NCBI GenBank assembly: GCA_964590705.1
Contig: CAZPZF010000002.1
Span: forward strand, 1 to 40,269
Source of the DNA: an uncultured Spirochaetales bacterium
GTDB taxonomy: Bacteria > Spirochaetota > Spirochaetia > CAZPZF01
DNA: 40,269 nucleotides
Direction of reading: 5' to 3'
In this document: piece after piece, positions 3,794 through 21,125 of the stretch
Layout: every line of letters starts with the position of its first letter
Numbering within the stretch: position 1 is the first letter of the stretch
Notes under the pieces: generated by a model
Told to the model about the DNA's origin: nothing
What the model saw: only the letters and a program-made list of their open reading frames with translations
The model's database searches: none
Program-made: the position numbers and the translations under genes

Positions 3794-3841
3794 GGAATCG
3801 AGCTATTCGGGGTCAGGAGATCCGCGGTATATGAGCAGGGC

Positions 3842-4474
3842 TTAGATATATCCCAGCAACATAGACGCCGCCAGGCCGGTCCCTACGGGGACGACGATAT
3901 TGTCTACGTCTCCCGTGGGAAGGGCTTCGAGAAGGGTTGCCACAAACCCGATGGCCGCGGCGATCTCAAGAGAGCCGGTGAGCCTGAAGGAGACCCAGGT
4001 CACGACCACGAAACAGGCGAGGCTTCCCGCGAGGGTTTTTCCACCCGTGAAGGGAATGCGGACACGACCGAAGAGCTTGCCGATGATGCTCGAGAAGCTG
4101 TCCCCAAGGGCGAGGGCGAATATGGCAAGGGTCGCGGCTGGGTGGGGATACAGAAGCAACGCGATCATAGCGCCGATCCCGAGGGTGACAGGCCCTAAAA
4201 CGAAACGTCCCCTGTCCCGCTCGCGTGAAGCGGCCAGCGTGAGGCGGGAAATGACAGTACCTCCGCCTCCGGAAAGGCGGAAGTATTCGGAAAAACTATA
4301 GATGAGGATTCCGGATGCGAGTACGAACACCGTTACCGTCTTGCTGTAATAAGCAATAATGGGAACCAGCGCTACCAGCATATGAATTGATTTCCTGATC
4401 AGCTCGGTTTCTATCTCACGTCGACCGACCGTTTTTACAGGAAATCTCGGAATTGTCGTCGTTGTTCGTTCCAT
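3842..4474 (-). CDS. polyprenol/dolichol/phytol kinase-like protein (CTP-dependent kinase, CDP-diglyceride synthase superfamily)
   Basis: 210-aa membrane protein. Contains IRKSIHMLVALVPIIAYY and the motif GDSFSSIIGKLFGRVRIPFTGGKTLAGSLA, typical of the SEC59/DGK1/VTE5-type family. Confidence 0.75.
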   Translation of the reverse strand: MERTTTTIPRFPVKTVGRREIETELIRKSIHMLVALVPIIAYYSKTVTVFVLASGILIYSFSEYFRLSGGGGTVISRLTLAASRERDRGRFVLGPVTLGIGAMIALLLYPHPAATLAIFALALGDSFSSIIGKLFGRVRIPFTGGKTLAGSLACFVVVTWVSFRLTGSLEIAAAIGFVATLLEALPTGDVDNIVVPVGTGLAASMLLGYI

Positions 4475-4522
4475 ATTTCTTTAGTACACCGCTTCTGTTT
4501 AAGATATACTTCACCCTATTAT

Positions 4523-4539
4523 TGCAGAAAGCGTGCCAA
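4523..4539 (-). promoter_or_regulatory. sigma-54 (-24/-12) type promoter upstream of the 3842-4474 gene
   Basis: The minus strand of 4539-4523 reads TTGGCACGCTTTCTGCA, i.e. TGGCAC-N5-CTGCA, against the consensus TGGCAC-N5-TTGCA. The GG and GC elements have canonical spacing. The -12 GC lies about 50 nt upstream of the ATG at 4474, in an AT-rich 237-bp spacer. Confidence 0.5.
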
Positions 4540-4671
4540 CAGAAGCAGTTCGGTAACAAGGAAATAATTCCCGCAAAGATAAGCAGTTAAGAAACCATCT
4601 AATGTCGGATTTGAGTGTTTTTCCGTAAAGTATGATTAACTATACCTTTATTTTCACAATTCGCTATTATA

Positions 4672-4687
4672 CGTCCGGACACGGACG
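4672..4687 (-). terminator. weak hairpin downstream of the cheY / CoA-binding gene pair
   Basis: Perfect 6-bp stem CGTCCG-gaca-CGGACG, 25 nt past the stop at 4712. On the minus strand it is followed by A/T-rich sequence rather than a clean U-tract. Confidence 0.3.
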
Positions 4688-4711
4688 CTCTGTCAGACGG
4701 GATTGGCGAGT

Positions 4712-5080
4712 TCAGAACCTGCCGGAATTGAGCAGCACGAGCGTACAATTTTTGAGAACCGGTATTCCGGCCTCTGCGAGCCGTTTCTCCAGGCTCTCCG
4801 ATTCCGTTCCCGGGTTGAGAATCACCCTTTTCGGCTTGAGACCGACCATCTGGTCTGTCAGGGGAAGGGATCGTTCCGGAGCGAGGTAAACCGTAAGCGT
4901 ATCGACCGATTCCCGGATATCCGAAAGCGCGGAAAGAACGGGAACGCCGTCAAGAGAGCTCAATCCGGGATTGACGGGAATGACACGGTATCCGTGCTTC
5001 CGAAGAAGAGTGAACGCCTTGTTCGAGAATTTGTCCGGTTTATCGCTCGCGCCCAGCACGACGACTGTTTTCCCATTCAT
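4712..5080 (-). CDS. CoA-binding domain protein (YccU/YneT-like)
   Basis: MNGKTVVVLGASDKPDKFSNKAFTLLRKHGYRVIPVNPG...DTLTVYL matches the small CoA-binding family. I chose the ATG at 5080 because the longer ORF (to 5173) would overlap the cheY 3' end. Confidence 0.75.
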   Translation of the reverse strand: MNGKTVVVLGASDKPDKFSNKAFTLLRKHGYRVIPVNPGLSSLDGVPVLSALSDIRESVDTLTVYLAPERSLPLTDQMVGLKPKRVILNPGTESESLEKRLAEAGIPVLKNCTLVLLNSGRF

Positions 5081-5109
5081 GGCGGCTTCCCCGGATGCGT
5101 GTTCCTGCG

Positions 5110-5472
5110 TCATCCGCAGACCTTCTTGATGGCGGCCAGAAGCTTGTCTGTGCTGAAAGGCTTGACGATCCAACCGGTTGCTCCGGCGGCTCTGCCCTCT
5201 TCCATGACGCTCTTCTGGGACTCGGTCGTGAGAACGAGGATGGGGATGAACTTGTTCGCCGCGTTCTCTCTGACCTTCTTGATGAAACCGATTCCGTCAA
5301 GATTCGGCATGTTCACGTCGCTGATGATGAGATCGACGGGTCCGCTGGATAGTTTGTCGATGCCGTCCATCCCATCGCAGGCCTCAACCACCTCGAATTC
5401 GTTCTGCTCAAGAACGAATTTGATGCTCTGCCTGATTGCCTTGGAGTCGTCAACAACAAGTACCTTTTTCAT
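5110..5472 (-). CDS. cheY: single-domain CheY-like response regulator
   Basis: MKKVLVVDDSKAIRQSIKFVLEQ...DLIISDVNMPNLDGIGFIKKVR...ILVLTTE...GATGWIVKPF. It has the acidic pocket DD, the phospho-acceptor D, and the T and K residues. About 120 aa with no output domain. Confidence 0.8.
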   Translation of the reverse strand: MKKVLVVDDSKAIRQSIKFVLEQNEFEVVEACDGMDGIDKLSSGPVDLIISDVNMPNLDGIGFIKKVRENAANKFIPILVLTTESQKSVMEEGRAAGATGWIVKPFSTDKLLAAIKKVCG

Positions 5473-5557
5473 TCCGCTACCATACACCTAAGAGTGATCA
5501 TGAATCAATAATGATACACAATCCGATGTATTTCCAGTCCCCGCGATCTTTTTTTCG

Positions 5558-6547
5558 TCATGATATGACGGCGCATAACTCCTGGATAGAGGAGAAAGTC
5601 CGCAGCCGGACGATCGCCTTGTTCTGTATCTGGCGCACCCGTTCCCTCGTGATTCCGAGGATCTGCCCGATCTCCTCCAGGGTCAGAGGAGCCTGGCCGT
5701 TCAAACCGTACCTGTACTGGATGATCTGCTGTTCGCGTTCGGATAACAGGGAGAGCGCCTTCTCCAGGATCTCGTGTATGGTATGTTCAAAAACATCCTC
5801 GAAAGGGCCAGCGTATTCGTCGTTGCAGATGAGATCGGAAAGGCTGGTCACGTTTTCATCATCGACCGTCGTGTCGAGAGAGGCGGTTTCGCCGCTGAAA
5901 TCCATGACCCTGCTCACCTTCGCAGAAGGAAGATCCATGTATGTCGCGATCTCCGTGGTGCTTGGGTCACGTCCCAGCTCCTGGGTGAGGTACTTGGATA
6001 TGGAAAAACACTTCTTCATGGTGTTGAGGACGTGGATGGGGATCCTGATGGTCCTTCCCTTGTCGGCGAGGGCCTTGATGATGGCCTGCTGGATCCACCA
6101 GGTCCCATAGGTGGAGAACTTGCAGCCCTTGGTATAATCGAAGCGTTCCGCCGCCTCGATCAGTCCGATATTTCCCTCGTTGATGAGGTCGAGAAGGCCG
6201 AGGCCGCGATGCTGGTACCTCTTGGCGATGGAGACCACAAGGCGAAGGTTCGCGTTCACCATCCTGTTTCTTTCCCGCCCGAGGTTTGTCTCGGCCCTTG
6301 CTTTCCGCTCGCGGTATTCCCCGAAGCTGATCTTCTCAGCCTTATATTCAGCCTCGAGATCCAGCAGGTACCTCTTCCATGTCTGGATCGCCTTACCAAT
6401 CTCCATTTCCTCGTTTTTCTTGAGAAGGGGGTAACAGGAGATCTGCTTCAGATAGAGGGAGAGGGAATCCGCGTCTCCGGAAAACGACGCGTGTCCCGAG
6501 AGGTCCTGTTCCGTAAACCGTTCGGAAACCTTTCTACTGTTTTCCAT
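5558..6547 (-). CDS. sigma-70 family sigma factor (RpoD/RpoS-like, short)
   Basis: Region 1.2 is [21 protein letters not shown]. Region 2 is [57 protein letters not shown]. Region 4 is [15 protein letters not shown]...[28 protein letters not shown]. Confidence 0.85.
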
Positions 6548-6663
6548 ACCGTTTTACTCCTTGCCTTTCTCTTTCTTTCTGTCTGTACTATCAACCGGCA
6601 AGGAATGGGGAACAATCGGGGTTTCCTGACACTTTGCATAGGGTTTTCCCCTATATGGGGAAA

Positions 6664-8748
6664 TTACAATACAATCCGATGGAGGGGGCGAGGTACGGCG
6701 GCGAACGGGAGGGACGGTTTTCCATTGAGGAGATATTCGCCGGCGTCCGGGGTAACGACAAAGAGGACCGTTCCTTTCGGGGTTTTCTCGTGAAGGAGGA
6801 TATCAACGCGCCGGCCTGAAATGTCAACGCCGGCCGTCTCGGCTCCGGGAAACAGGCGATCCGATCCGGCCACGGCCGGTCCGTGTTCGGGGACGGAGAA
6901 GAGACAGCGGGAGGCAAAGGGCGGCAGAAAAACGAGACACCCTCCCGCGAGGATTCCCCCGTCCATAAACCAGTGTCCCTCGGGAAGGCGGACGGACCTG
7001 CCGTCCGAGGAGAGATTCGCGATACAGCGATAGAGGCCATTCCCGATCGAGAAATCGACGGAACAGAAACCTCGATCACACTCGACGCGGAGGATCCGTT
7101 TGGGTCTGACGGGAAACTGGGATTCGTAGAGCTTGCGGCATTCCGGGCCGTACTCAGCCGGATTGTCGGAGACGAGGAGCAGCCCCCCGAACAGCTGGTT
7201 TAGAAGGAAAAGTGTCTTTCTCTGCTCCAGAGAGAGTGCATGCCCCGTTTCACGAAGGATGGAGACATCGGGATCGTTCATGAATACCTTCCCTAAAAGG
7301 GGATGGCGGCCGATCGTGCTCGCCAGCGAATTGATCGTGGAGACCCGTTCGCGGTATCTCAGGAAGGAAAGCCGCCTGTCCTCCCATTTCAAGGCGACGT
7401 CCGAACCGATTCTGCAGTATTCGAAGCGCCCGAACGCGGACCCCAGAGGAACGCCGCAGCCGAGAATCGGGACGTCTCCCGCGGCCTCCCGCAGAAAGTC
7501 GACGGCCCTGGCCATGGCTCCGCCCCGGGTCTCGCGGCCGGAGTCGCCTAGCGCCGCGGCGTACAGGAAGTCGAGTTTCAGGAAACGGTATCCCCACTCC
7601 TCGACGATCGTGCGGAAAACATCCACCAAATAGCCTCTCACCTCTTTGTTTTCCAGATCGAGGGCATAGAAGAGTCCGCCCCAGTTGAACGGGTTGTTTC
7701 CAGCCTCGACGGGTTTACCGCCGCGGTCCCGCATGACCCAGTCCGGGTGCTCCCGCAACAGGATCGACCGACCCTCCGCCACTAAAGGAGCAAGCCAAAG
7801 CCCTGGAAGATATCCGGCGTCGGAGATCCGTCGGGCCAAGTCCTTCATTCCGCCCGGGAACTTCGAATTGACGACGAGCCAGTCGCCGACCGCGTTCTGC
7901 CATCCGTCGTCTATCTGGATCAAGTCTATGGGAAAGCCGCTTCCAGAGAATCCGTTGAGAGCGGCAACGACGTCATGTTCGGTGACTTTTTCATAGTGCC
8001 GATACCAGCTCGTCCAGCCCGTGAGGATCGCCCTTTCCTGCCGGGGGATGCCCAGATCCTGCCGGTAAGAGTCGAAAACCGTTTCGATCGTTCCCCGCCT
8101 CTCCACGAAGTCCAAACCACGGTAGGTTCCGTCTATCCGATGCCCGCCGCAGTCTCTTGAAACGGAAAGAGAACCCCGTCTCCCGTTCCATGTGAAGAGG
8201 GTGAAGCCCTCCCTTTCCCCAAGGGAACCGAAGAACCTGATCGTGTCCGTTTCGGCCCTGCGGAGGTAGGAGTGGGTATACGAATGAAAGACGCCGCGTC
8301 GCCGTGGGTACCGATGAAAGAAGGCGTCCCCCATCTTGGCCAACCGGTATTTCCCGCTCCAGTGAGAGAACAGGGGCCTCATCCCTCGCATGGCCTCCCC
8401 GGGGGAGAACTCACGCGAATCCGTCCATGATTGGTACCCGTTGGCAAAGAAGCGGAGATCCGCGCCGGTTTCGGGCTCCAGGACGATTTCAACCTCGCCG
8501 AGGATGAGCGGCTCGCCGGGTTCCAGAACGAGGGCCACTCTAACCCCCTCGCCCGCCGCGCGAGTCGAAAGAATCGCGGTCAGGGGCCCGTCCGAAAAAC
8601 GCCGGTCCGCGGCTGATACGGGAACAGACTCGGGCGCGAGTGCCGCCTCCCGAACAACCCCGCGCGCGGGCGGAGACGCGGAGAACCGGAGCTCCTTCCA
8701 GCTTCCGTCGCGGGAGCGTTCGGGTATGTAGCGTATCTTCCCTTTCAT
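6664..8748 (-). CDS. glycoside hydrolase family 36 alpha-galactosidase-like enzyme
   Basis: 694 aa with GWTSWY, DLIQIDDGWQ, GYLPGLWLAP, WGYRFLKLDFLY and FMNDPD motifs, characteristic of GH36 melibiase/raffinose-type enzymes. No signal peptide. Confidence 0.75.
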   Translation of the reverse strand: MKGKIRYIPERSRDGSWKELRFSASPPARGVVREAALAPESVPVSAADRRFSDGPLTAILSTRAAGEGVRVALVLEPGEPLILGEVEIVLEPETGADLRFFANGYQSWTDSREFSPGEAMRGMRPLFSHWSGKYRLAKMGDAFFHRYPRRRGVFHSYTHSYLRRAETDTIRFFGSLGEREGFTLFTWNGRRGSLSVSRDCGGHRIDGTYRGLDFVERRGTIETVFDSYRQDLGIPRQERAILTGWTSWYRHYEKVTEHDVVAALNGFSGSGFPIDLIQIDDGWQNAVGDWLVVNSKFPGGMKDLARRISDAGYLPGLWLAPLVAEGRSILLREHPDWVMRDRGGKPVEAGNNPFNWGGLFYALDLENKEVRGYLVDVFRTIVEEWGYRFLKLDFLYAAALGDSGRETRGGAMARAVDFLREAAGDVPILGCGVPLGSAFGRFEYCRIGSDVALKWEDRRLSFLRYRERVSTINSLASTIGRHPLLGKVFMNDPDVSILRETGHALSLEQRKTLFLLNQLFGGLLLVSDNPAEYGPECRKLYESQFPVRPKRILRVECDRGFCSVDFSIGNGLYRCIANLSSDGRSVRLPEGHWFMDGGILAGGCLVFLPPFASRCLFSVPEHGPAVAGSDRLFPGAETAGVDISGRRVDILLHEKTPKGTVLFVVTPDAGEYLLNGKPSLPFAAVPRPLHRIVL

Positions 8749-9758
8749 TGCAGTTTTTTCCGTACCTTTCTCGACGACTCTTTCCTCTGACGGCGCTCCT
8801 TCTCGAGGGCCGTAAGGCGTTCGTGCCTTCGCCGGCCGTATACGAGGAGATAGGCTCCCGCGGCCGTCATGAGAAGACAGAGGATCTGGCCCGTGGAGAT
8901 GTTGAGGAACGAAGAGAACAGGTGCGTCGCCTCCGGGTTCGGGCCAAGGGCGATGATGAAACCGAGATCTCGGTCAGGTTCGCGGAAATACTCGATAAAG
9001 AAACGGATGACCCCGTATCCGATGAGGTAGAAGCCGAAGACCTGGCCGTCGTATCGCTTCCTCTTCCTCACGACGAACCACAGGAACAGCCAGAGGACGA
9101 CGCCCTCGAACAGCGCCTCGTAGAGCTGAGAGGGATGCCGGGGAAGATTGACCCGGGAGCCAAGGGCGGCGATGTCCATTCCCGCCTGCTCCATGAAGCG
9201 AACGACCCACGGCTGGCTCTTCGGGAAGGATGGCGCAAGGGGAAAGCCCATGCCCCACGGCGCCGCGGTCACCCTGCCCCACAGCTCTCCGTTGATGAAA
9301 TTGCCGAGCCTGCCGAACGTGTAGCCGAGAGGGATGCCGGCAGCCGTGAGATCCGCCCATTGGAGGAAGGAATACTTCCGCTTCCGGCAGTAGAGGACCG
9401 CGGCGACCGCGGCGCCTATGGCCCCGCCATGGTACGACATGCCGGAAAGCCCAACCAACCGCATGTTCCGGTCAAAAGGCCAGAAGATCAACCATGGTTT
9501 CCTGAGGAAAGTTCCGCCCGGATCGTACAGGGTCGTGGCGAGCAGCCGCGCGCCCAGGATGAGGCCGAGGATGACCCAGAAGAAATAGTTCAACACGTCG
9601 TCCTGGGAATAGGGAAGCTTCCGCTCCCTGACCTGGAAACGAAGCAGGAGATAGGCAACGGCAAAGGCGAACAGATACATCAGGCCATACCAATGTACGG
9701 GGAGGCCGGGGATGATCGTCGGCGAAAGCCATGAGGGAAAGGAAACGAACGCGAGCAT
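8745..9758 (-). CDS. lgt: prolipoprotein diacylglyceryl transferase
   Basis: Contains IPGLPVHWYGLMYLFAFAVAYLL, SGMSYHGGAIGAAVA, FGRLGNFINGELWGR and HPSQLYEALFEG. Its TGA overlaps the ATG of the downstream gene in an ATGA at 8745-8748. Confidence 0.9.
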   Translation of the reverse strand: MLAFVSFPSWLSPTIIPGLPVHWYGLMYLFAFAVAYLLLRFQVRERKLPYSQDDVLNYFFWVILGLILGARLLATTLYDPGGTFLRKPWLIFWPFDRNMRLVGLSGMSYHGGAIGAAVAAVLYCRKRKYSFLQWADLTAAGIPLGYTFGRLGNFINGELWGRVTAAPWGMGFPLAPSFPKSQPWVVRFMEQAGMDIAALGSRVNLPRHPSQLYEALFEGVVLWLFLWFVVRKRKRYDGQVFGFYLIGYGVIRFFIEYFREPDRDLGFIIALGPNPEATHLFSSFLNISTGQILCLLMTAAGAYLLVYGRRRHERLTALEKERRQRKESSRKVRKKLQ

Positions 9759-9761: not shown

Positions 9762-12716
9762 TCACTCCTTCTTGGTATCCAGGGGTTTTTCCTTGATATG
9801 GCCGGTTGCCTGATCGAAGTAGATGATCACCCCTTTCTTCTTCTCGGTCACCTCGAGAAACCGGCCGTGGGTCTCGAACAACACACCGGGATACAGGGTT
9901 CCGCGGACCTTCACCTCCGCGGGAAAATGCTCCTCGAAACGCTCCCGCAGTGTGAACAGCTGCAGGCTCCGCTTCTCCATGACCTTGAGATACTTCAACT
10001 TCTCCGCGCGGGCCTTCTCGAGGGATTCACGGAGTCCCTGCGATTCCAGCTTCTTCATCGTGAAATCGATCTTGCTCAGGGCGTCCTTGGCCTTCTGGAT
10101 CTCCTTTTCCTGAAGCTCGATCTGGTCCATAATGAGGTAGTCCTGGCCAAAGGAGACCTCCGTCTTCATCCCGGTTTCCGATCCGAGATTCATCACGGAC
10201 ATCCCCTTCCTGGCCCGGACCTTCCCGCCCACGAGGTTTCCCTTTTCCGATTCGAGTGAAACCTTACCGTTCGCCTTGATATTGCAGCGCAGACACGCGT
10301 TCTTCACGCGGACATCCCCGACGCAGAGAACGGTCGCCTGTTCCACGAACCCTGCGAGGATCTCCTTCTTAGCCCTGAGAACGCCCTTCCCCCCGCCCTT
10401 AACCCCCTGATTGATGATGATGGATCCCTCGGCGGAGAGAAGGGCGGAATCGGCGTTCTCGTTGATATGGATATCTCCGCCGGAGAGGACGTAGAATCCC
10501 GGAAGAACGCTTCCGTTGACCTGCACCGTTCCGGAAAACTTGATGTTCCCGCATTTGAGGTCGACATCGCCCTCCACCGTATGGATGTCCCGGATGTCGA
10601 CCAGATTGTTCGCGTAGACGAGCTCTCCGTTCTTTTTCGCGTAGAGAAGGATGTTCCCCTCCTCGTCCTGCTCCTGACGGAAATTGGGCCCGATGGTCAA
10701 GGTGATGGGGGGGGCTTGCCTGGCCGTGATCACCTTTCCGGTCACGTCCCATCCGTCCTCCGGTTTCATGTTCGGCGCGAGGATCCTGGCAACGGCGCTT
10801 CCTTCCTTGACGGACGTGATCTTGTCCTGATGCTTGTAATCGGCTTTCCCGCTCTTGTCGATGGTGACGCCGCTTCCTGAGGCGACGTTGATGAGGAATT
10901 CGACCTTGCTCGACCGCGCATCCCGTGGAGGACTCCCGTTCGCGATGACGACATCGCGCGCTTCCCCCTCCCGCTCCGCCGTCTCGAAGGCCTCGGACAG
11001 GGCCGCCTCGTCGAGCCCTTTTACGATCCCCTTGGCCTTGACCGCCGCGTCGACATCGCTCCGCGAGAGACGCCTGCCTGAACCGACGCTCCGAACGAGG
11101 CGCATGACCGCCTTCATGCGGTCCGCGGAGAGCTGGATATCGATCGTCGAATCCCGATGCGGCCTGACCCTGAAGAAATGGATATCGTCTTTTTTCTGAT
11201 AGTCAAGGATGCCGTCCGCGGCGGCAATGACGAGATCCTTATCCTCCTTCACATTCTCGAAAAGCCTGCGCTCCGGTTCGGTTCCGGGAATTCCCTCGAG
11301 GATCTTTCCAGTAACGTCGGTTCCAGGGTCACCCTTTGAAACCGGGCCGAGCTTGGCCAGGATCTGATCCTTGACCACGAGCGAGAAGGAAACATCCTCT
11401 GTCAGGGGAAATTCCTCCAGGGACTCGATCCCGTCCAACGGCGAAGGAGGGTTTTCCCGGAGGACGGAGAGAATTGCGTCCCTCTCCTTGTTGGCGAGAA
11501 AGACCACGTCAACGGTGAATTCTCTAGGGACGCCTTGGAGGGGCTGCTTTCCCTCGGCGAGGACGTATCCGGAAAGCTCGACCGAAGGGCCGCGGTAGAA
11601 TTCAAGGATGTCCCGCTTGATCTTCTCGAAATCGAGTCCCTTAAGCCCGGCCCCCCTGATGGCGGTTCCCACGTCCTTCAGGACGAGCGGTTTCCCCTTT
11701 CCCCTTCCCTTTCGGATCGAAAGAACAGCCTTCAGCCGATCCTCTGAAATCTCAATGGAAAAACCGCCGTCCTGATCGGGAGAGATCGGTTCTTTCCGAA
11801 GGGGCGTCCGGCGGGAAAGAGCTGCCGCGAGCAATTCCTCGATCCGTTCGGTTGGCAGAAGATGGTCAGCAGCGATGCCGGCGGCGGCAGCGGCTTCACA
11901 GATCTCCTTGCCCGTGGGGATTGGGACATCGGGGGATCCTGGATCGAAGTCGAGAAACGCCGTCAGTTTGTCCGCCGACGCGGTCACCGTGAAGGCATGG
12001 GAGGAAAGGGGAAGGATATCCACCCAATTGGCGCCCTTGCGGACAAGACCCGTGTACAGGGCCGTCAGTTCCCCTTTGCGCCGTTCGATTCCGGTTCCCG
12101 TGTGGAACGAGACGGGAGCCTTTGCAGGAGGGGGAATGGGCCGGCCGAAGACGCTCTTTCCCGCGCTCCCAGGCTTTCCTGGGAGGATGACCGCGATCCT
12201 TTCCCCCTGCTTCACGTATCCCGTCGAAAGGATCCGGGGATCCACATGGACCGGTTCCTCAATTTCCCGTTTTTCCGTGACGTATTCCTCTTCGGCCTTC
12301 TGCTGCTTGAAGAGGCCGCCGCCCTTCTTCTTCTGCTCACTCCTGGTTCGTACCGTCTCCACGCGTTTGATCGTGATGACCGGAGGACGGTTCTCGGCCA
12401 AGATCCTATCGATCTCGTCCCGGAGATTCGGCGGTACGGTAAGCGGTTCCCACTTGAAATCTTCGGAAGTCGGGTTCTCCGGGGGTAGCCCTCGTGCGAT
12501 TGCCGCGCTTCCTCCGCCCTTGGCCGCGAGCCCGGCCATGGCCTTCTCGATTCCCGCGGGATCGAACCCCTCGATCACGCCCCGGCTGAACAGAAGGCTG
12601 ACGACCTTTTCCGTATCCCATGCCTCACCCTTCTCCGAGGAGGCCGGAGAGTACCAGAGTTCCACGGATAAACCCGAGGGATCTATCCTGATGTCTACGG
12701 TGCCGATCAGTTTCAT
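9762..12716 (-). CDS. FapA (DUF342) family protein, unusually long with multiple N-terminal modules
   Basis: 984 aa. The C-terminal part (aa ~712-858) is a Gly-rich beta-solenoid (GDVDLKCGNIKFSGTVQVNGSV...GKVSLESEKGNLVGGKVRARKG). A coiled coil follows (DQIELQEKEIQKAKDALSKIDFTMKKLES...), as in DUF342/FapA. Upstream there are four FapA_N-like modules. Confidence 0.8.
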   Translation of the reverse strand: MKLIGTVDIRIDPSGLSVELWYSPASSEKGEAWDTEKVVSLLFSRGVIEGFDPAGIEKAMAGLAAKGGGSAAIARGLPPENPTSEDFKWEPLTVPPNLRDEIDRILAENRPPVITIKRVETVRTRSEQKKKGGGLFKQQKAEEEYVTEKREIEEPVHVDPRILSTGYVKQGERIAVILPGKPGSAGKSVFGRPIPPPAKAPVSFHTGTGIERRKGELTALYTGLVRKGANWVDILPLSSHAFTVTASADKLTAFLDFDPGSPDVPIPTGKEICEAAAAAGIAADHLLPTERIEELLAAALSRRTPLRKEPISPDQDGGFSIEISEDRLKAVLSIRKGRGKGKPLVLKDVGTAIRGAGLKGLDFEKIKRDILEFYRGPSVELSGYVLAEGKQPLQGVPREFTVDVVFLANKERDAILSVLRENPPSPLDGIESLEEFPLTEDVSFSLVVKDQILAKLGPVSKGDPGTDVTGKILEGIPGTEPERRLFENVKEDKDLVIAAADGILDYQKKDDIHFFRVRPHRDSTIDIQLSADRMKAVMRLVRSVGSGRRLSRSDVDAAVKAKGIVKGLDEAALSEAFETAEREGEARDVVIANGSPPRDARSSKVEFLINVASGSGVTIDKSGKADYKHQDKITSVKEGSAVARILAPNMKPEDGWDVTGKVITARQAPPITLTIGPNFRQEQDEEGNILLYAKKNGELVYANNLVDIRDIHTVEGDVDLKCGNIKFSGTVQVNGSVLPGFYVLSGGDIHINENADSALLSAEGSIIINQGVKGGGKGVLRAKKEILAGFVEQATVLCVGDVRVKNACLRCNIKANGKVSLESEKGNLVGGKVRARKGMSVMNLGSETGMKTEVSFGQDYLIMDQIELQEKEIQKAKDALSKIDFTMKKLESQGLRESLEKARAEKLKYLKVMEKRSLQLFTLRERFEEHFPAEVKVRGTLYPGVLFETHGRFLEVTEKKKGVIIYFDQATGHIKEKPLDTKKE

Positions 12717-12718
12717 GG

Positions 12719-13864
12719 TTACTGTATCTTGAATCCCTCGTTGAACGCCCTGACCAGCCTGGACTTGAGAAGCTGGTTCTCCTTCTTCAGGGTCGATATC
12801 TCGTACTGCTGTGTCTTAATGGTCTCTATTAGATCCCCCCTGGTCAGCGCGCCGCTCTGTAGAAGCGCTTCCACGTCCTGCACCTTGGACTCGAAATCGA
12901 TATCCGCCTCCATCTCCGCGGTCTGGAAACTCTCCTCGACCTGGTCCATGTCGAGGAAGCCCGCGGTTTCCTCTGGCTGCTGGATCAGCTTGTCCGCTAT
13001 CCGGTAGATCGCCTGGGAGAGGACCGCCTGCGGCTTGTAGACGATGATGGGAAGGCGTGAAGAAAGGGCGATATCCTGGAAGTGGTCACGGTAGATGATC
13101 CCGAGATGCTCCACGTCCACATCGAGGTACTCCTTGCAGGAACGTCTGATCTTGGCCGCCTTCTGGGCGTCCGCGGGGTCGTCGAGGAGGTTGAGGATTA
13201 GCTGCGGGTGGAACCCGAAGATTTTCTTCCGGTATTCATCGTACCCTGCCGGATCCTTTTCCTTGATCGCGGCAAGGATCCGGGGAACATACACCTTCTG
13301 CAGGCCCGTGCCTTCCCTGCGCAGCGCCTCCAGGTATTCATACGCGGGGCCATTCTTCTTCAGGGAAGAGGAGAGGATCCGGAAGACCGCGTTCTTGAGA
13401 AAGAGGTACGCGTTCAGCGTCGCGGTGAGGGTTGGCGCGGTGACGATGATGCCCTGGCCTGACGTGAGAAAGCAGTCCATGACCATGTTCCCCGAGCCCG
13501 CGCCCAGATCCATAATGAGGTAGTCCGCCTTAATTTCGAGCAGATTGCGGACCAGCGAGTTTTTCAGAGAGGCTCGGACCGAGGCCATGCCCGGGATCTC
13601 GGCGTCTCCGGGGATGAAGCGCAGCCCGCTGTATTCGGTTTCGACCACGATCTCATCGAGCGTCTCCCCATGGTTTGAAAGATAGGTTCCGATCCCCTTC
13701 TGGACGCCGGAGATTCCGAGCAGGAGGTGGAGATTGGAGGCGCCGAGATCCATGTCCACGAGAAGGACTTCCTTTCCGGCCTGGGAAAGGGCGACGGCAA
13801 GATTGGCCGCGACCAGGGATTTCCCGACACCGCCTTTGCCGCTCGCAATCGGAAGAACCTGCAT
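12719..13864 (-). CDS. MinD/ParA/FlhG-class P-loop ATPase with C-terminal extension
   Basis: MQVLPIASGKGGVGKSLVAANLAVALSQAGKEVLLVDMDLGASNLHLLLG contains the deviant Walker A KGGVGKS. Walker B is DYLIMDLGAG. About 95 extra acidic/coiled-coil residues follow at the C-terminus. Confidence 0.85.
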   Translation of the reverse strand: MQVLPIASGKGGVGKSLVAANLAVALSQAGKEVLLVDMDLGASNLHLLLGISGVQKGIGTYLSNHGETLDEIVVETEYSGLRFIPGDAEIPGMASVRASLKNSLVRNLLEIKADYLIMDLGAGSGNMVMDCFLTSGQGIIVTAPTLTATLNAYLFLKNAVFRILSSSLKKNGPAYEYLEALRREGTGLQKVYVPRILAAIKEKDPAGYDEYRKKIFGFHPQLILNLLDDPADAQKAAKIRRSCKEYLDVDVEHLGIIYRDHFQDIALSSRLPIIVYKPQAVLSQAIYRIADKLIQQPEETAGFLDMDQVEESFQTAEMEADIDFESKVQDVEALLQSGALTRGDLIETIKTQQYEISTLKKENQLLKSRLVRAFNEGFKIQ

Positions 13865-13867
13865 GGA

Positions 13868-14350
13868 TTATTCCTCCTCGACTTTCGTTTCCGCGAAATC
13901 GGGAAGCCTTTCGGGTTCCTCGACTCGGGGCTTCGATCTTCGACGTTCCCCACGCAGATACGCGGCGAGGAGCGCGAGAAAGAGAAGATCGATGAGGACG
14001 AGAACGACGGAAAGAACGGCTGCGGGATCCTGCAGGGAAAAGAGGAACGGGGAGACCGAGAACGTATCGTTCCCCAGCCTGAAGAGGATGTACATGATCC
14101 CCGAAAGGGAGGAGAGGGCTTTTGCCAGGATCAGGATGATCGCGGCCGTCGGCCGGAACTGGGGAAGGAAACCGCAGCAGAAGAAAAGGCCCGCGCAGAC
14201 GATCTGCGCCGACCCGAACCAGAGAAGCAGAAAGGACCTTGTCACTTCCACTTCGGTCCACAGGATCGACAGGAGGAGAAGATACATAGAGGAGAACCTG
14301 ATGAGCTCCCAGACACCCCCGGAGGCGAAAAAAATCTTCTGTCGATCCAT
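13868..14350 (-). CDS. small membrane protein (about 4 TM) with acidic tail, unknown function
   Basis: 160-aa ORF, first gene of the minus-strand operon. Hydrophobic segments include MYLLLLSILW, LLLWFGSAQIVCAGLFFCCGF, AAIILILAKALSSLSGIMYILF and AAVLSVVLVLIDLLFLALLAAYL. The tail is EEPERLPDFAETKVEEE. Confidence 0.55.
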   Translation of the reverse strand: MDRQKIFFASGGVWELIRFSSMYLLLLSILWTEVEVTRSFLLLWFGSAQIVCAGLFFCCGFLPQFRPTAAIILILAKALSSLSGIMYILFRLGNDTFSVSPFLFSLQDPAAVLSVVLVLIDLLFLALLAAYLRGERRRSKPRVEEPERLPDFAETKVEEE

Positions 14351-14358
14351 ATGGAAGA

Positions 14359-14387
14359 AGTGTACGAAAGCGGATCATTCAGGTCAA
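14359..14387 (-). promoter_or_regulatory. sigma-70-like promoter of the membrane protein / ATPase / FapA operon
   Basis: The minus strand reads TTGACC-N17-TACACT, followed by only 8 nt (tcttccat) before the ATG at 14350. No Shine-Dalgarno sequence lies between them. Confidence 0.4.
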
Positions 14388-14446
14388 GGGCAGGTCTTTT
14401 CGGTAGAATAATCGGGACATTCGTAGTACCATAGAGTATACGATGA

Positions 14447-15877
14447 ATGGAGCCCGAAGAGATGAAGTCTAACAGATCCTATTGGATGATAAGCACGGGG
14501 ATCATCGTCCTCGTGTTCGCGCTCGTCGCCTCGACCCCGCTGCTCCTCGCTCAGCCGGGAACGAACCAGAGCGATACGTACATCGATGTCCTTGCCCAGA
14601 TATTCCGCTACGTGCAGAAGAACTACGTCGAAGAGGTCGACCCTCAGGTCATCTTCGAGGGAGCGGCGACAGGACTCGTGGAGAGCCTCGAGGATCCCTA
14701 CTCCTACTACCTCACGGCCTCGGATATGGTGGACATGGGGGACACGACCCAGGGGAACTTCGGGGGCGTCGGCCTATACATCTCCAAGTACGTGGAGTTC
14801 GACCCCACGGTTCCGGAATCTCGGTACCCCTACATCTATGTCGTCTCGCCCATCGAGGGAACCCCCGCGTACAAGGCGGGGATCCACGCGGGAGACTACA
14901 TCCTGAAGATAGAGGGTGAATCCACTGAGGCGATCTCCAGCGACGAAGCCGCCAACCGGCTCAGGGGAGTCCCGGGAACCAAAGTGACCGTAACGATTCT
15001 CCGTGGAAAAGACTTCACCTTCGACCTTACCCTGGAACGGGCGATCATCGAGATTCCGACGGTCAGGTACGGCATGATCGGTTCGGACATCGGCTACCTC
15101 AGGATCATCCAGTTCACCCCCTTTACAGTGGACCGCGTCAGAGAGGCGGTTTCGGAGATGAACCGCGGAAAAGGGATGGCCGGGCTCGTCATCGACGTCA
15201 GGAGCAACCCCGGCGGGCTGCTCAACTCCGTGGTCCGGGTAGCCGATTTCTTCCTCGACGAGGGGATCATCGTGGGAACAAAATCCCGGATCGCCTCGGA
15301 AAACGAGGAATTCACGGCAAAACCTTCAACCATCATTCCGATGCGTACGCCTATCGTCGTCCTCATCGACCGCGGGTCAGCTTCCGCCGCGGAGATTCTT
15401 GCGGGCGCGCTCAAGGATTCCCGGCGCGCGGTCGTCATCGGGGAGACCTCGTTCGGAAAGGGGTCCGTTCAGAACGTCATCCCCCTTCCGAGCGGCGGAG
15501 GACTCCGGCTCACCACGTCCCGGTACTACACGCCATCGGGTACCTTCATCGACAAGATCGGGGTGACGCCGAACATCCCCGTATCCGAACCGGAACTCAC
15601 GGAAGAGGAACAGAAAGCGCTGAAAAAGCTCCTGGAGGAGAACCTCGTCGTCACCTTCGTGGCCGACCATCCCGCGATGGAAAACGGGCAGATCGATCGC
15701 TTCGTGCGGGATCTGATCTCGGACGGCTTCACCCTCGCCCCGAGGATCCTGAAGAGGCTCGTTCGGAACGAGTACTATCGGAAGATGGATTCACCACCCA
15801 TCTATGATCTCGAATTCGATCTGGCGCTCCAGGAAGCGCTGCGGGTTCTTGGGGCGGATTCTTCGGGACAGCGGTAA
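14447..15877 (+). CDS. S41 family carboxy-terminal processing peptidase (Ctp/Prc-like)
   Basis: N-terminal TM/signal anchor and a PDZ region (GIHAGDYILKIEGEST). The S41 core is LVIDVRSNPGGLL...VVLIDRGSASAAEILAGALKD...GETSFGKGSVQ. Confidence 0.9.
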   Translation: MEPEEMKSNRSYWMISTGIIVLVFALVASTPLLLAQPGTNQSDTYIDVLAQIFRYVQKNYVEEVDPQVIFEGAATGLVESLEDPYSYYLTASDMVDMGDTTQGNFGGVGLYISKYVEFDPTVPESRYPYIYVVSPIEGTPAYKAGIHAGDYILKIEGESTEAISSDEAANRLRGVPGTKVTVTILRGKDFTFDLTLERAIIEIPTVRYGMIGSDIGYLRIIQFTPFTVDRVREAVSEMNRGKGMAGLVIDVRSNPGGLLNSVVRVADFFLDEGIIVGTKSRIASENEEFTAKPSTIIPMRTPIVVLIDRGSASAAEILAGALKDSRRAVVIGETSFGKGSVQNVIPLPSGGGLRLTTSRYYTPSGTFIDKIGVTPNIPVSEPELTEEEQKALKKLLEENLVVTFVADHPAMENGQIDRFVRDLISDGFTLAPRILKRLVRNEYYRKMDSPPIYDLEFDLALQEALRVLGADSSGQR

Positions 15878-17373: not shown

Positions 17374-17814
17374 CTAGAGCTTGAGGTACTCGTACACTTC
17401 CTTGAGCTTGTCCTCCATCCTCCGAGTGATCGATCTGCCTACCCATACCTGCGGGAATGTGAACAGGAGGAGGAACCCGATGATATCGGTTATAAAGCCG
17501 GGAGTGATCAAAAGCAGGCTTCCGACCAGCGCCCCGGCAAGACGGACGAACTCGTCTCCCGGGTAACAGCCTTCGGCGACACGTGCCTTGATCTGTTCGG
17601 TCATCCGCCTCACCTTACGAACCGAGACGATGAAGCCGAAAAGCCCCGCACCGGCCGTAAGCGCGAGGACGAGATACGTCCCCCACCGTTGACCCAGATA
17701 GAGAAGAAGCGCGAGTTCCCCGATGGGGACGAGGGAATAGAGGAGGAGAAGAAGCATCCCTTTTATTAGAGACCGAGAGTCGAAAAGCCGAAGGATCGAA
17801 CGTATCTCTATCAT
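17374..17814 (-). CDS. fxsA: FxsA family membrane protein
   Basis: LLLLLYSLVPIGELALLLYLGQRWGTYLVLALTAGAGLFGFIV...LAGALVGSLLLITPGFITDIIGFLLLF is the FxsA pattern. Start chosen at the ATG at 17814 (MIEIRS...), because the longer ORF N-terminus (to 18027) looks non-coding. Confidence 0.7.
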   Translation of the reverse strand: MIEIRSILRLFDSRSLIKGMLLLLLYSLVPIGELALLLYLGQRWGTYLVLALTAGAGLFGFIVSVRKVRRMTEQIKARVAEGCYPGDEFVRLAGALVGSLLLITPGFITDIIGFLLLFTFPQVWVGRSITRRMEDKLKEVYEYLKL

Positions 17815-18066
17815 TCCTCCATGGTAGCACATCTCCCCCTTTTGATACAGAGAAAAGGCTTCTTCGGCCGCCCCGCCCTCAGCATGTTTCGAACCGTGCC
17901 CCAAAGCGAGTTTTGGGAAAAATTCATTCATTATTCGCCCAATTTCCTTTCCGTTCCCCTTACCTGTGATTGCATAACCAGGCGCGGTGATTGTATAAAT
18001 ACGCAGGATTTTCAAAACAATGCGCATAAAACAGTTCTATAACAATGAGTAAAATGGAGCGCTGCA

Positions 18067-19239
18067 ATGCCTCGAATCCTGATAACGGGTTGCCCATGGC
18101 AGCAGGCAGAACCGATCGTTGCGCTTCTTCATGACGACTACGTGATCAGACATCGGGAGACTCCTGGCCTCGAACAAGACATCGATCCTCTGGGAGACGC
18201 GGACAAGCCGGACGCGGTCATCCTCGTCTGCAGCGATTATCATGACCGTCCCCTTTCCGATGGCGAGGCATCGTTCATCGTCGGCCTGGGCGAACGGGGG
18301 ATCCCTCTCATCCTCGTGACGGGGAACAGCCGGTTACAGAGTCTCCCGCCTTCCGAGCCTTGGAGGGACCAGAACGCCTCACGATGGATTTCGGAAACAG
18401 TTCCTCTCTACGAGGGATTGCGCGGGATCAACGACTCTGTCAGGCGAGCGATCCTCAAGGGAGCGGCCGGATCTCATGAATCGAAACCGCACCTTCAGGA
18501 TCCCGGCGGCCCCCTTCTCGGAACGAGCAAGGCGATCCGGGAGGTGAACTCCCTCATCATCAAATACGCAGCGAGCAACTTTCCCCTCCTCATCTACGGG
18601 GAAACGGGAACGGGAAAGGAACTCGCCGCCCGTTCGGTGCATCGTTTCTCCAAAAGGGGCAACCGGAGCTTCGTGGCTAGGAACTGCGCCGCGATTCCCT
18701 TGCCCCTCATTGAAACCGAACTCTTCGGAAGTGAACGCGGCGCCTATACGGACGCGATCTCCAGACCGGGCTGCTTTCAGCTGGCGGACAAGGGAAGCCT
18801 TTTCCTCGACGAGATAGGAGACCTTCTACCGACCGGGCAGGCGAAGCTGCTCCGTGCAATAGAGGCGCACGAGATATTGCCGGTCGGCGGAGTTCGAACC
18901 GTTCCGGTGGATGTTCGGATCATATCTGCCACGAACAGAAACCTGAAAAGAGATATGAAGAACCGCCGCTTCAGATCGGACCTCTACTACCGGATCAACA
19001 CCCTTCAGTTATTCATGCCCGCGCTTCGGGAGAGGAAGGAGGACATCCCCCTGCTTCTTGAAGCCTTCCTGCGGGAAGAGGGAGAAACCCGCGGGATCGA
19101 CAGGCCGGCCATGGAGAAACTGCTCGACTATGACTGGCCTGGAAACGTGCGGGAACTCCTCAGCGTAGTCAAACGTGCCTTGGTTTTTTCGCATCGGGAA
19201 ACGATATCCGACGAAGATATCCTCTTCGACCGGGAATAA
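18067..19239 (+). CDS. sigma-54-interaction-domain AAA+ activator with a pseudo-receiver N-terminus and no C-terminal HTH
   Basis: Walker A is YGETGTGKE and Walker B is LFLDEIGDL. The family signature DLYYRIN...PALRERKEDIPLL...WPGNVRELLSV is present. The protein ends about 20 aa after the AAA+ lid (no Fis-type HTH). The loop motif reads GAYTDA (18739-18756) instead of GAFTGA. Confidence 0.85.
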   Translation: MPRILITGCPWQQAEPIVALLHDDYVIRHRETPGLEQDIDPLGDADKPDAVILVCSDYHDRPLSDGEASFIVGLGERGIPLILVTGNSRLQSLPPSEPWRDQNASRWISETVPLYEGLRGINDSVRRAILKGAAGSHESKPHLQDPGGPLLGTSKAIREVNSLIIKYAASNFPLLIYGETGTGKELAARSVHRFSKRGNRSFVARNCAAIPLPLIETELFGSERGAYTDAISRPGCFQLADKGSLFLDEIGDLLPTGQAKLLRAIEAHEILPVGGVRTVPVDVRIISATNRNLKRDMKNRRFRSDLYYRINTLQLFMPALRERKEDIPLLLEAFLREEGETRGIDRPAMEKLLDYDWPGNVRELLSVVKRALVFSHRETISDEDILFDRE

Positions 19240-19249
19240 TCCCGTATGG

Positions 19250-19744
19250 CTAAATGAGTATCCGGATAAATTTGCCCTCAATTACGGGAACAATGGAGCC
19301 ATCGGCCATGGTTCTGAATTCGGCGAGCCGTCCTACTACCAGGACACGGGAATGGAGCGTCAGCTCTGTTTCGGAGCGTCTCCTGCTCCTCCTGGCCGGA
19401 ATGAGCGAAGCGAATTCATCGCCGGAAAACCGAACGATGCAGCGGTACATCCTCACGTCTTCGAGGCCGACCCATTCCCCCTGGATCACCTCGATCTCGC
19501 CGATAAAAGCCTCCCCTTCTCCGCTCAGCACTTCACGCGAGGTTACCGAGCCGTCGATGATGATGAATCTGTCGGTATCCGCCTGATCCTGGTTTCCCCT
19601 GGCTATGAGAAGGTTCAGATCGCGCAGGGTCATGGAGAAATTGACCACCCCGAGAAAATCGTTGACCGATGCCGCGGATACCGCCGCTCCCACGGAAACG
19701 AGAAAAACCGCGCATAGAAAGGAAAGAAGAATACTTTTCTTCAT
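19250..19744 (-). CDS. secreted hypothetical protein
   Basis: MKKSILLSFLCAVFLVSVGAAVSAAS is a signal peptide. A GGAGAGGA Shine-Dalgarno sequence lies 8 nt upstream. No family recognised. Confidence 0.6.
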   Translation of the reverse strand: MKKSILLSFLCAVFLVSVGAAVSAASVNDFLGVVNFSMTLRDLNLLIARGNQDQADTDRFIIIDGSVTSREVLSGEGEAFIGEIEVIQGEWVGLEDVRMYRCIVRFSGDEFASLIPARRSRRRSETELTLHSRVLVVGRLAEFRTMADGSIVPVIEGKFIRILI

Positions 19745-19776
19745 ACTGTCATCCTCTCCTGGCCCAAGATACCGTC

Positions 19777-19805
19777 AGTATAGCAAAAATGCGGCCGTTT
19801 GTCTC
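19777..19805 (-). promoter_or_regulatory. sigma-70-like promoter for the 19250-19744 gene
   Basis: The minus strand reads GAGACA-N17-TATACT, with TGC immediately before the -10 hexamer (extended -10-like). It lies about 32 nt upstream of the ATG. Confidence 0.35.
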
Positions 19806-19872
19806 TGGAATCTCCGCTTCGCGCCGCGGGGTTTCTCGGAAAATTCCTCTTGATAAAAGAGCGTACCGCTGA

Positions 19873-19930
19873 TAGACTTAATCCCGAATCTGATTTCCCG
19901 TATTCTATAGGGATTAATATAGTAAGTCTA
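19873..19930. repeat. nested inverted repeat in a divergent intergenic region
   Basis: TAGACTTA-ATCCC (19873-19885) pairs with GGGAT (19910-19914) and TAAGTCTA (19923-19930). The right arm carries an 8-nt insert. AT-rich context between two divergent promoters. Confidence 0.4.
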
Positions 19931-20048
19931 TATCCGTTTATTCCGACAATAAAAAGGATTGGCACAAGGAGCCCGTTTTTCAACGCGGCTCCGCTTTTAG
20001 GACGATACGAGGAGATTTCAGGTCTTGCAGGTATACACAGCCACTCAT

Positions 20049-20077
20049 TTGACAAAGGAATTATTGATTACTAAGAT
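20049..20077 (+). promoter_or_regulatory. sigma-70-like promoter of the STAS / YbjN-like / pspA operon
   Basis: Perfect -35 TTGACA (20049-20054), a 17-nt spacer, and -10 TAAGAT (20072-20077). About 40 nt upstream of the ATG at 20117. Confidence 0.45.
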
Positions 20078-20116
20078 AGATACAGGCGAATCCCGTGGTC
20101 AATGCAAAGAGGTCCC

Positions 20117-20668: not shown

Positions 20669-20702
20669 CCCCAGAACAGCTGCAGATATTCGGGAGGCGT
20701 CC

Positions 20703-21089: not shown

Positions 21090-21125
21090 AGGGTCGGACA
21101 CGGTGAAGAAGAGAGGGAGTTGACT

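Follow-up and report, generated by a model that had tools for sequence, protein, structure and literature searches.

A small membrane protein and a FlhG/MinD-family ATPase as the conserved core of a spirochaete operon that in most loci also encodes a giant FapA (DUF342) protein

Introduction

ATPases of the ParA/MinD type are coupled to large self-associating scaffolds in systems such as PomXYZ of Myxococcus and bactofilin-PadC-ParA, and bactofilin is itself a beta-helical polymer. In FlhG, an N-terminal extension carries the helix (DQAxxLR motif) which activates FlhF. How subpolar flagellar motors and division sites are placed in spirochaetes is only partly understood; Borrelia has, to our knowledge, been reported to lack MinCDE, and we know of no described Min system in the Lyme and syphilis spirochaetes. 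A polar or flagellar function of FapA, a protein of the DUF342 family, is known only from Vibrio, where FapA of Vibrio vulnificus is brought to the pole as a client by HubP, the protein that recruits FlhF and FlhG as well (PMC12918733; PMC6877527). The Vibrio protein is of approximately 60 kDa (PMC6877527), from which we infer a single FapA_N module. Here we describe a stretch of 40,269 nucleotides (nt) from an uncultured Spirochaetales bacterium (assembly GCA_964590705.1, contig CAZPZF010000002.1, positions 1 to 40,269), referred to as a whole as the window, in which three closely packed minus-strand genes encode a small transmembrane (TM) protein, a FlhG/MinD-family ATPase and a giant DUF342 protein.

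Both a MinD-family ATPase and a FapA-family protein are parts of known kinds. What appears to be undescribed is their combination, together with the C-terminal extension of the ATPase, the TM protein dedicated to it and a FapA architecture of three modules. A whole-word full-text search for "DUF342", judged by titles and one passage, returned no description of a DUF342/MinD-like pairing, in agreement with the initial annotation of this DNA, which knew of no functional account of one. The best-supported reading of the data presented below is that of a spirochaete-specific, membrane-directed ATPase of the FlhG/MinD family, with the 4-TM protein as obligate partner and the DUF342 protein as accessory client.

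Results

Organization of the operon

The genes of the string are given below, in window positions and in order of transcription (aa, amino acids; AF2, AlphaFold2).

13868 to 14350, minus strand: small polytopic membrane protein of 160 aa with 3-4 hydrophobic/TM segments; abuts the ATPase gene
12719 to 13864, minus strand: FlhG/MinD-family deviant-Walker-A ATPase of 381 aa; MinD-like core at residues 1-295 with a helical insertion at about 165-216
9762 to 12716, minus strand: giant cytoplasmic FapA/DUF342 protein of 984 aa; FapA_N and FapA above gathering score; AF2 mean pLDDT 85
8745 to 9758, minus strand: lgt (prolipoprotein diacylglyceryl transferase); TIGR00544 at 266 bits against a cut-off of 119; 3 nt past the DUF342 stop
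6664 to 8748, minus strand: GH36/melibiase-like gene, sharing 4 nt with the end of lgt; regarded as context

The open reading frame (ORF) table reproduced exactly the coordinates and spacing first given for the trio, with the TM gene at 14350-13868, a gap of 3 nt, the ATPase gene at 13864-12719, a gap of 2 nt, and the DUF342 gene at 12716-9762. The packing of the trio was upheld, but the string consists of five genes rather than three, because lgt starts 3 nt past DUF342 and the GH36-like gene overlaps lgt; both had been overlooked. The GH36-like gene also lies downstream in some related loci. At every junction a Shine-Dalgarno-like sequence is embedded in the preceding gene. The AAGGAG of lgt sits within the 3' end of DUF342, and the closing codons of the TM gene, GAG GAG GAA TAA (EEE and stop, window 13865-13880), provide the GGAGG Shine-Dalgarno sequence for the ATPase ATG. 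Since these codons serve both purposes, the acidic end of the TM protein may partly reflect a constraint at the nucleotide level. The TM protein and the ATPase are read as a translationally coupled pair, in which a small 4-TM inner-membrane protein is joined with a 380-aa ATPase.

Conservation among the Spirochaetia

Species-representative genomes were searched with the ATPase alignment as query, which gave at least 600 matching stretches (585 of them encoding a relative), and the best 80 were taken as the locus sample. Six-frame ORFs of these 80 loci were searched with the proteins of eight window genes; 81, 75 or 63 loci were assessable, depending on the feature. The best 80 loci all belonged to the Spirochaetia, among them Spirochaetaceae, Sediminispirochaeta, Marispirochaeta, Treponemataceae including T. 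primitia, Rectinemataceae and others. Within them the ATPase was full length, always approximately 380 aa, at 54-64% identity.

A hydrophobic ORF of 130-190 aa abutted or overlapped the start of the ATPase gene in 74 of 81 assessable loci (gap of -29 to +27 nt), and nearly everywhere the two genes overlapped or stood no more than a few nt apart. DUF342 followed the ATPase gene directly in 53 of 75 loci, 47 of which then continued into lgt. The ATPase gene ran straight into lgt with no DUF342 in 16/75 (the termite-gut Treponema group and one other lineage), and neither gene adjoined it in 6/75. Whether directly or past DUF342, lgt came next downstream in 63 of 75 loci, and a divergent ctp was found upstream in 46 of 63. 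The constant partner of the ATPase is the small membrane protein, then lgt and the divergent ctp, and not the DUF342 protein. The pairing of ATPase and DUF342 is nonetheless conserved well beyond close relatives, though it is not universal: adjacency outside close relatives, on which the pairing had been staked beforehand, was observed in the 53 loci down to 54% ATPase and approximately 30% DUF342 identity. Where the ATPases shared 55-72% identity, the DUF342 proteins shared 31-56%.

For Borrelia, use was made of the supplement to a B. burgdorferi Tn-seq paper (PMC5333916), covering 366964-371034 of the B31 chromosome. BB_0359 is listed as a carboxyl-terminal protease (ctp) on the minus strand, BB_0360 as a hypothetical protein of 141 aa, and BB_0361, starting 3 nt later, as an "ATP-binding protein" (PF01656) of 380 aa; the next gene listed past BB_0361 is BB_0363, approximately 1 kb on (PMC5333916). 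The only DUF342 protein among those listed is BB_0267, elsewhere in the genome (PMC5333916). BB_0360 and BB_0361 are very probably the orthologous core pair, as judged from length, Pfam family and synteny only. As Borrelia keeps the arrangement ctp / BB_0360 / BB_0361, the core pair of TM protein and ATPase is old. We take the interval of about 1 kb between BB_0361 and BB_0363 to be lgt (BB_0362), the BB_0267 gene to lie just beyond the flagellar flhF-flhG region, and bb0269 to be the flagellar-operon flhG, separate from BB_0361.

The ATPase and its C-terminal extension

13817 to 13843, minus strand: SGKGGVGKS, a deviant Walker A motif (residues 8-16) that contains the signature lysine (Lys10) and the P-loop lysine (Lys15)
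12722 to 12979, minus strand: family-specific C-terminal extension, residues 296-381, with an acidic segment, a conserved motif, a heptad-like helix and an amphipathic end

The Walker A motif of the MinD/ParA/FlhG type which the initial annotation had recognized is present at residues 8-16. In an alignment of 20 family members K10, K15, D37, D39 and the DLGAG of switch II (119-123) were invariant; Walker A, signature lysine and the aspartates of switches I and II place the protein in the MinD/ParA superfamily (SIMIBI, deviant Walker A). The Pfam families ParA, CbiA and AAA_31 all scored above their cut-offs. In the AF2 model (pLDDT 76) the MinD fold extends to around residue 295, and Foldseek ranked FlhG first (4rz2/4rz3; E 3e-15, TM-score 0.80-0.88, 23% identity), followed by FleN and then MinD. 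Sequence comparison and Foldseek agreed in placing the ATPase in the FlhG/FleN/MinD clade, as had been proposed.

The possibility had been raised that the protein might be a clear orthologue of FlhG or MinD. It is neither. MinD models scored far below their cut-offs (TIGR01968 64.7 bits against 212.9; TIGR01969 92.3 against 201.75; PRK10818 39.5 against 508), and the BLASTP alignment to MinD of E. coli was confined to 49 residues surrounding the P-loop. The protein begins 7 residues before the P-loop, and all 20 aligned family members start there; PDB chains aligned to it from residue 33 in FlhG and residue 16 in FleN, with 32 and 15 residues ahead, respectively. With its P-loop starting at residue 8, the ATPase is without the N-terminal extension of FlhG.

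The C-terminal extension reported at the outset is real and conserved, but its length is approximately 86 rather than 95 aa and its helices are of low confidence, being modelled as two long helices at 306-336 and 342-375 with pLDDT 50-59. Conserved stretches in the 20-member alignment were AEMEAEIDFE..., LLxSGALTxGDLIETIKxQQYEI, LKKEN and (K/R)LVKAxxxGF. When compared with coiled-coil families, the extension gave sub-threshold matches only (DivIC, ZapB). The terminal 11-mer of the ATPase, (K/R)L(V/L)KAxxxGF, continues the long helix modelled at pLDDT <60 and has a hydrophobic moment of 0.5-0.9, compared with 0.32-0.38 for the MinD membrane-targeting sequences used for comparison, values which accord with the earlier description of this end as possibly amphipathic. 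A role of the C-terminal end in membrane targeting is plausible.

The family is uniform, with at least 120 clusters at 57% identity or more, nearly all of 376-385 aa, and its named members come from the Spirochaetia; the nearest named relatives, from Sediminispirochaeta and Marispirochaeta, share 61-64% identity. Members are often automatically labelled "FlhG" by JGI. Two other identities were considered and rejected. An Fe-S carrier (Mrp/NBP35), suggested by the top Pfam name "NUBPL", is contradicted by the lack of a CxxC motif, with only isolated C131 and C243, and by scores of 55 bits against 450 for NF041136 and 41 against 348 for ApbC. With respect to anti-phage defence, the sole PADLOC match of the ATPase was to PDC-M28B, over 35 residues at the P-loop (27.7 bits), and the TM and DUF342 proteins had none.

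Relatives of the ATPase

In an exhaustive profile search with the ATPase the orthologous group was found at scores of 340 bits and above. Most of the C-terminal extension was also matched by a second group, which consists of proteins of about 375-385 aa and scored 215-307 bits (P0191-P0194 and others). One ATPase of this group (L093:8001-9128) is divergent from genes for a 903-aa protein, cfpA (CfpA_C, the Treponema cytoplasmic filament) and a TP_0747_N protein (2154-7918), and another adjoins an unrelated large protein. These neighbours suggest that several paralogous ATPases of this type are at work in spirochaetes, each with its own cytoskeletal partner. A large set of proteins of 300-350 aa shares the ATPase core and is without the extension, as are ATPase+TPR fusions of 690-785 aa at 205-255 bits (P0209-P0211, P0215, P0226, P0239, P0255). 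One such fusion, at L096:6001-8169, is preceded by a second TPR protein. A Rosetta-stone fusion of ATPase and DUF342 was rejected as a candidate: none was seen in the exhaustive search, and the relatives of 690-785 aa carry TPR, not DUF342.

The DUF342 protein and the tail of the membrane protein

12009 to 12716, minus strand: FapA_N-like module 1, residues 1-236 (AF2 model); repeat matches at 7-90 and 166-216; missing from short orthologues
11157 to 12008, minus strand: extra head (about 242-310) and FapA_N-like module 2 (about 318-520); repeat matches at 320-404 (E 1e-13) and 446-508
10587 to 11156, minus strand: canonical FapA_N module 3, residues 521-710; best Pfam stretch 525-704 (profile positions 1-178); repeat match at 524-710
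10149 to 10586, minus strand: Gly-rich beta-solenoid, residues 711-856; pLDDT 90-96; the most conserved part of the protein
9783 to 10139, minus strand: helical hairpin (860-927) and C-terminal beta domain or cap (934-978) of the AF2 model

Five stretches of the protein matched FapA_N (PF20250; E 6e-71, 237.8 bits against a cut-off of 27), and the FapA beta-solenoid (PF03961) was matched with E 1e-60 and 205.7 bits against a cut-off of 31. The internal repeats were obtained from profile self-searches. Each FapA_N module begins with an alpha/beta head, after which comes a beta sub-domain carrying a PGxxGxDVxG loop; in the model of module 1 the parts are the alpha/beta head, a long beta hairpin and the beta sub-domain, whose loop reads PGxxGxxVxG. 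The initial annotation had the protein ending in a beta-solenoid and a coiled coil. The solenoid and a helical hairpin were indeed found in that order, but the hairpin is not the end, as the beta domain at 934-978 follows it. The hairpin/C-terminal segment matched only designed or natural coiled coils in a PDB profile search, and no PDB chain matched the DUF342 protein by sequence, or significantly by fold in Foldseek.

A canonical FapA has one FapA_N module, a solenoid and a coiled coil in approximately 450-650 aa. With three FapA_N-like modules, an extra head and 984 aa, the protein described here departs from this plan and is therefore an architectural variant. Orthologues fell into a long class of about 960-1060 aa and a short class of about 710-765 aa, with a few of about 850-890 aa which are probably over-extended or split ORFs. 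The short form (approximately 725 aa) is without residues 1-236 of the long form, aligns from about residue 237 and has two FapA_N modules.

A search centred on DUF342, limited by its word index, returned 8 proteins with the full-length query and 50 with the solenoid alone, mostly fragments of one orthologous group. One distant DUF342 locus lies among flgM, flgN, flgK and fliW. In another (L091:1918-5847) the gene for a 675-aa MreB/FtsA-like protein starts 63 nt past that of a DUF342 paralogue of 612 aa (P0128), and in the sister contig L090 fliS lies approximately 2.3 kb upstream. The paralogue and the MreB/FtsA-like gene are possibly another pairing of DUF342 with the cytoskeleton.

For the 160-aa TM protein no Pfam or NCBIfam family was found. 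A WE..R motif close to its N-terminus is conserved, as are GK and a D within the last of the TM segments, and its predicted cytoplasmic tail reads RGERRRSK...LPDFAETKVEEE. The class of this tail follows that of the DUF342 protein, an acidic LPDFxETxVEEE or DIExVE accompanying the long form and RxRxLC[KTE] the short form; where DUF342 is absent the tails are varied.

Comparison with MinC

A likeness of the solenoid to the C-terminal beta-helix of MinC had been put forward, and the structural and profile comparisons made on this point gave nothing significant. Foldseek with the full-length multi-domain DUF342 model, which lowers sensitivity, gave MinC matches at E 0.3-3 overall (1hf2 at E 0.32 with TM-score 0.28-0.34; 4v02_D at E 2). 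Pfam MinC_C, searched on the solenoid fragment with E up to 10, scored E 0.19 and 12.2 bits against a cut-off of 33.2. In hhalign the solenoid aligned with E. coli MinC over a single rung of 26 residues at a probability of 2.7%, and a PDB profile search with the solenoid returned no MinC. With all four tests non-significant, homology of the solenoid to MinC was rejected, and the analogy reduces at most to the statement that both contain a beta-helix.

Promoter candidate and neighbouring genes

14359 to 14387, minus strand: sigma-70-like promoter candidate TTGACC-17-TACACT; 9/12 matches; ends 9 nt before the ATG of the TM gene
14447 to 15877, plus strand: ctp (S41 C-terminal processing protease; Pfam), divergent and a conserved neighbour, then rsmE and a wecG-family gene

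The promoter-like element described ahead of the trio exists, but such sites are no commoner in the window than in shuffled sequences (2 found, 1.7 expected). No Shine-Dalgarno sequence precedes the TM gene ATG at 14350. The operon mRNA may be leaderless-like, or the promoter site may be a spurious chance match.

No flagellar or division genes were found anywhere in the 40-kb window, minC, minE, flhF, flhA and fliA included, which supports what had been said of the absence of such genes nearby; none turned up in the flanks of the 80 related loci, which were screened for the eight window genes only. The rest of the window encodes proS, a sigma-70-family factor, rsmE, the wecG-family gene, fxsA, sigma-54 activators, STAS, PspA, histidine kinases and aroA. 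At 17374-22521 fxsA, a sigma-54 activator, a STAS protein, PspA/IM30 and a protein with an OmpR-type C-terminal domain are clustered, and they are syntenic in one related locus (L003); this cluster looks like a conserved membrane-stress (Psp-like) module. On the minus strand at 24338-26953 lies a gene for an 871-aa protein with Flg_new/InlB B-repeats and NHL repeats, probably surface or secreted, within the stretch of highest G+C content (24-27 kb, 0.60-0.64). Long antisense or alternative-frame ORFs over lgt, DUF342 and the TM gene (8640-9734, plus; 11875-12732, plus; 13653-14378, minus; 13727-14434, plus) look like the stop-poor frames typical of DNA of about 59% G+C.

Discussion

That the TM protein, the ATPase and the DUF342 protein act as one module is, in our judgement, an evenly balanced proposition. 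In its favour are the packing of 3, 2 and 3 nt with embedded Shine-Dalgarno sequences, the TM gene abutting the ATPase gene in 74 of 81 loci, the retention of the DUF342 slot while DUF342 itself diverges to approximately 30% identity, and a TM tail class that follows the form of DUF342. The invariant catalytic residues, FlhG and FleN at the head of the fold matches, the conserved extension with its amphipathic end, the recruitment of Vibrio FapA by HubP and the old core pair in Borrelia also speak for it. Several observations weigh on the other side. DUF342 is not in the operon in 22 of 75 loci, nor in Borrelia, and five more distant DUF342 loci that were sampled had no MinD-like neighbour. 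One long-read contig (L085:4288-10371) keeps the TM gene, DUF342 and lgt without the ATPase gene; assembly quality is a caveat here, as ctp, DUF342 and lgt are split by frameshifts. On that contig a DUF1573 Ig-like gene and a 250-aa gene occupy the ATPase slot. The C-terminal extension of the ATPase is conserved alike with a long, a short or no adjacent DUF342 (55.5, 55.8 and 57.0% identity to the window protein), and the corresponding values for the core are 60, 58 and 56.5%. The correlation of TM tail and DUF342 form follows clades and is confounded by phylogeny, and the terminal EEE codons of the tail are also constrained as the ATPase Shine-Dalgarno sequence. Adjacency alone is no proof of contact, because lgt, an unlikely physical partner, is packed equally tightly. 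Finally, bb0360 and bb0361 each have transposon insertions on record (PMC5333916), so that neither gene is essential in culture.

The two most conserved features, the pair of TM gene and ATPase gene (74/81) and the order of ATPase, with or without an intervening gene, and lgt (63/75), would also fit a unit consisting of the TM-ATPase pair alone. Such a pair would serve envelope or lipoprotein biogenesis with lgt and ctp, for example by controlling Lgt or a membrane complex in space or time, and DUF342 would be an unrelated gene, inserted or lost at a position of the operon that tolerates it. In the termite-gut Treponema group, and in Borrelia with BB_0362 taken as lgt, lgt comes directly after the ATPase gene, and the extension of the ATPase is conserved whether or not DUF342 adjoins it. 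Set against this are the 53 of 75 loci in which DUF342 is kept in the exact slot at down to 30% identity and in a form that follows the TM tail class, and the six loci with a TM-ATPase pair and no adjacent lgt, which mean that lgt is not obligatory either; moreover, we know of no MinD-family ATPase which acts on Lgt. We regard this explanation as possible though unlikely. An old housekeeping operon whose order has been kept by inertia in a stably syntenic clade, with no shared function, is a distinctly less probable account. It draws on the functional mixture of rsmE, wecG, ctp, lgt and the GH36 gene, which are syntenic all the same, and is opposed by the TM-ATPase junction, at which the genes nearly always overlap or lie at most a few nt apart. 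A small membrane protein with a MinD-family ATPase is, besides, a recurrent functional pattern.

Two further explanations identify the genes with systems already described, and both appear very improbable. If the pair were the very system that governs flagellar number and placement, its ATPase would be FlhG and its DUF342 protein the FapA orthologue. The JGI labels, the FlhG/FleN fold matches at the head of the ranking and the flagellar function of the only studied DUF342 protein are consistent with this. It is contradicted by the absence of the pre-P-loop extension of 15-32 residues found in FlhG/FleN chains, by the lack of flhF, flhA and fliA in the window, and by Borrelia, which has BB_0361 besides its flagellar-operon flhG (bb0269), with BB_0267 elsewhere. 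Least probable of all is a division-site system of the MinCD kind, where the solenoid of the DUF342 protein would stand in for the C-terminal beta-helix of MinC and inhibit FtsZ. The beta-helix common to both proteins, the weak matches to MinC (1hf2, 4v02_D, MinC_C at 12 bits) and the MinD-like ATPase would be in line with it, but every MinC signal was below significance, no MinC N-terminal domain was detected, no minE was found and the ATPase scored far below the MinD models.

We therefore return to the membrane-directed ATPase with the 4-TM protein as obligate partner and DUF342 as accessory client. By analogy with FlhG and MinD, binding of ATP would close an ATPase sandwich dimer through the signature lysine, and the dimer would dock on the cytoplasmic face of the inner membrane via the terminal amphipathic helix, the 4-TM protein, or both. 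The surface of the dimer could then recruit clients, which hydrolysis of ATP would free. In most Spirochaetia the DUF342 protein would be the client encoded by the operon; its three FapA_N modules could bind partners, and its solenoid and helical hairpin could self-associate. It would act as an accessory scaffold or effector placed or released by the ATPase, and not as an inhibitor of the MinC type. The likeness to FlhG/FleN and the role of FapA in Vibrio point to subpolar or polar organisation as a putative cellular target, either of periplasmic flagella or of pole identity; envelope or lipoprotein biogenesis is the alternative to which the constant linkage with lgt and ctp would lead. It is plausible that the operon is a new cell-positioning module, rather than a copy of MinCD, in which the giant protein is optional.

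A bolder proposal, which we consider unlikely and put forward tentatively, is that these genes represent a third branch of MinD/FlhG-type spatial regulators, with a membrane receptor or activator replacing MinE or a simple targeting helix and the FapA solenoid as self-associating effector. If so, it would set position or spacing along very long cells, for instance for flagellar motors at subpolar sites, for divisions to come or for the identity of the poles. Independently of this proposal, a widely conserved and uncharacterised pair of ATPase and membrane protein is defined, for which Borrelia transposon insertions are already on record, and a giant FapA-family partner accompanies the pair in most free-living and host-associated Spirochaetia. 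What has been a vague annotation as "ylxH-like ATP-binding protein" becomes a testable module, and the DUF342/FapA family, studied only in Vibrio, would gain a second context that is genetically linked. Even if the genes were merely unrelated neighbours, the public "FlhG" labels on the ATPase family would still be corrected.

Comparison with described systems

The closest described ATPases are FlhG (YlxH) and FleN (4rz2, 4rz3, 5j1j, 8p53), which share with the protein described here the deviant Walker A with its signature lysine and give the best fold match; an amphipathic C-terminal end like theirs is plausible. The spirochaete ATPase differs from them in having no pre-P-loop extension, in an extra helical extension of 86 aa, in the insertion at about 165-216 and in an identity of only 21-24%; it is coupled to a 4-TM protein, DUF342 and lgt, and no flhF neighbour was met. 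MinD-MinC-MinE resembles the operon in having an ATP-switch ATPase of the same superfamily and a partner with a beta-helix. Here, however, there is no minE, MinD models fall far below their cut-offs, and the solenoid has no detectable homology to MinC; the DUF342 protein is also four to five times larger than MinC and carries FapA_N modules.

FapA of V. vulnificus and V. cholerae (VCA1085) has the same Pfam families, FapA_N and FapA. The Vibrio protein is cytoplasmic and recruited by HubP, and the 984-aa protein is likewise predicted to be cytoplasmic, but it has three modules and an extra head, stands in no phosphotransferase system (PTS) or HubP context, and has an ATPase in its operon. The PomXYZ and bactofilin-PadC-ParA systems would, by analogy, work alike, with an ATPase and a self-associating scaffold; their partners are not homologous to those described here, and their matrix is the nucleoid, whereas the ATPase of the window looks membrane-directed. 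The arrangement recurs around the Borrelia pair BB_0360/BB_0361, which has the divergent ctp, a small protein, a gap of 3 nt, an ATPase of 380 aa and then an interval of about 1 kb, in an operon without DUF342.

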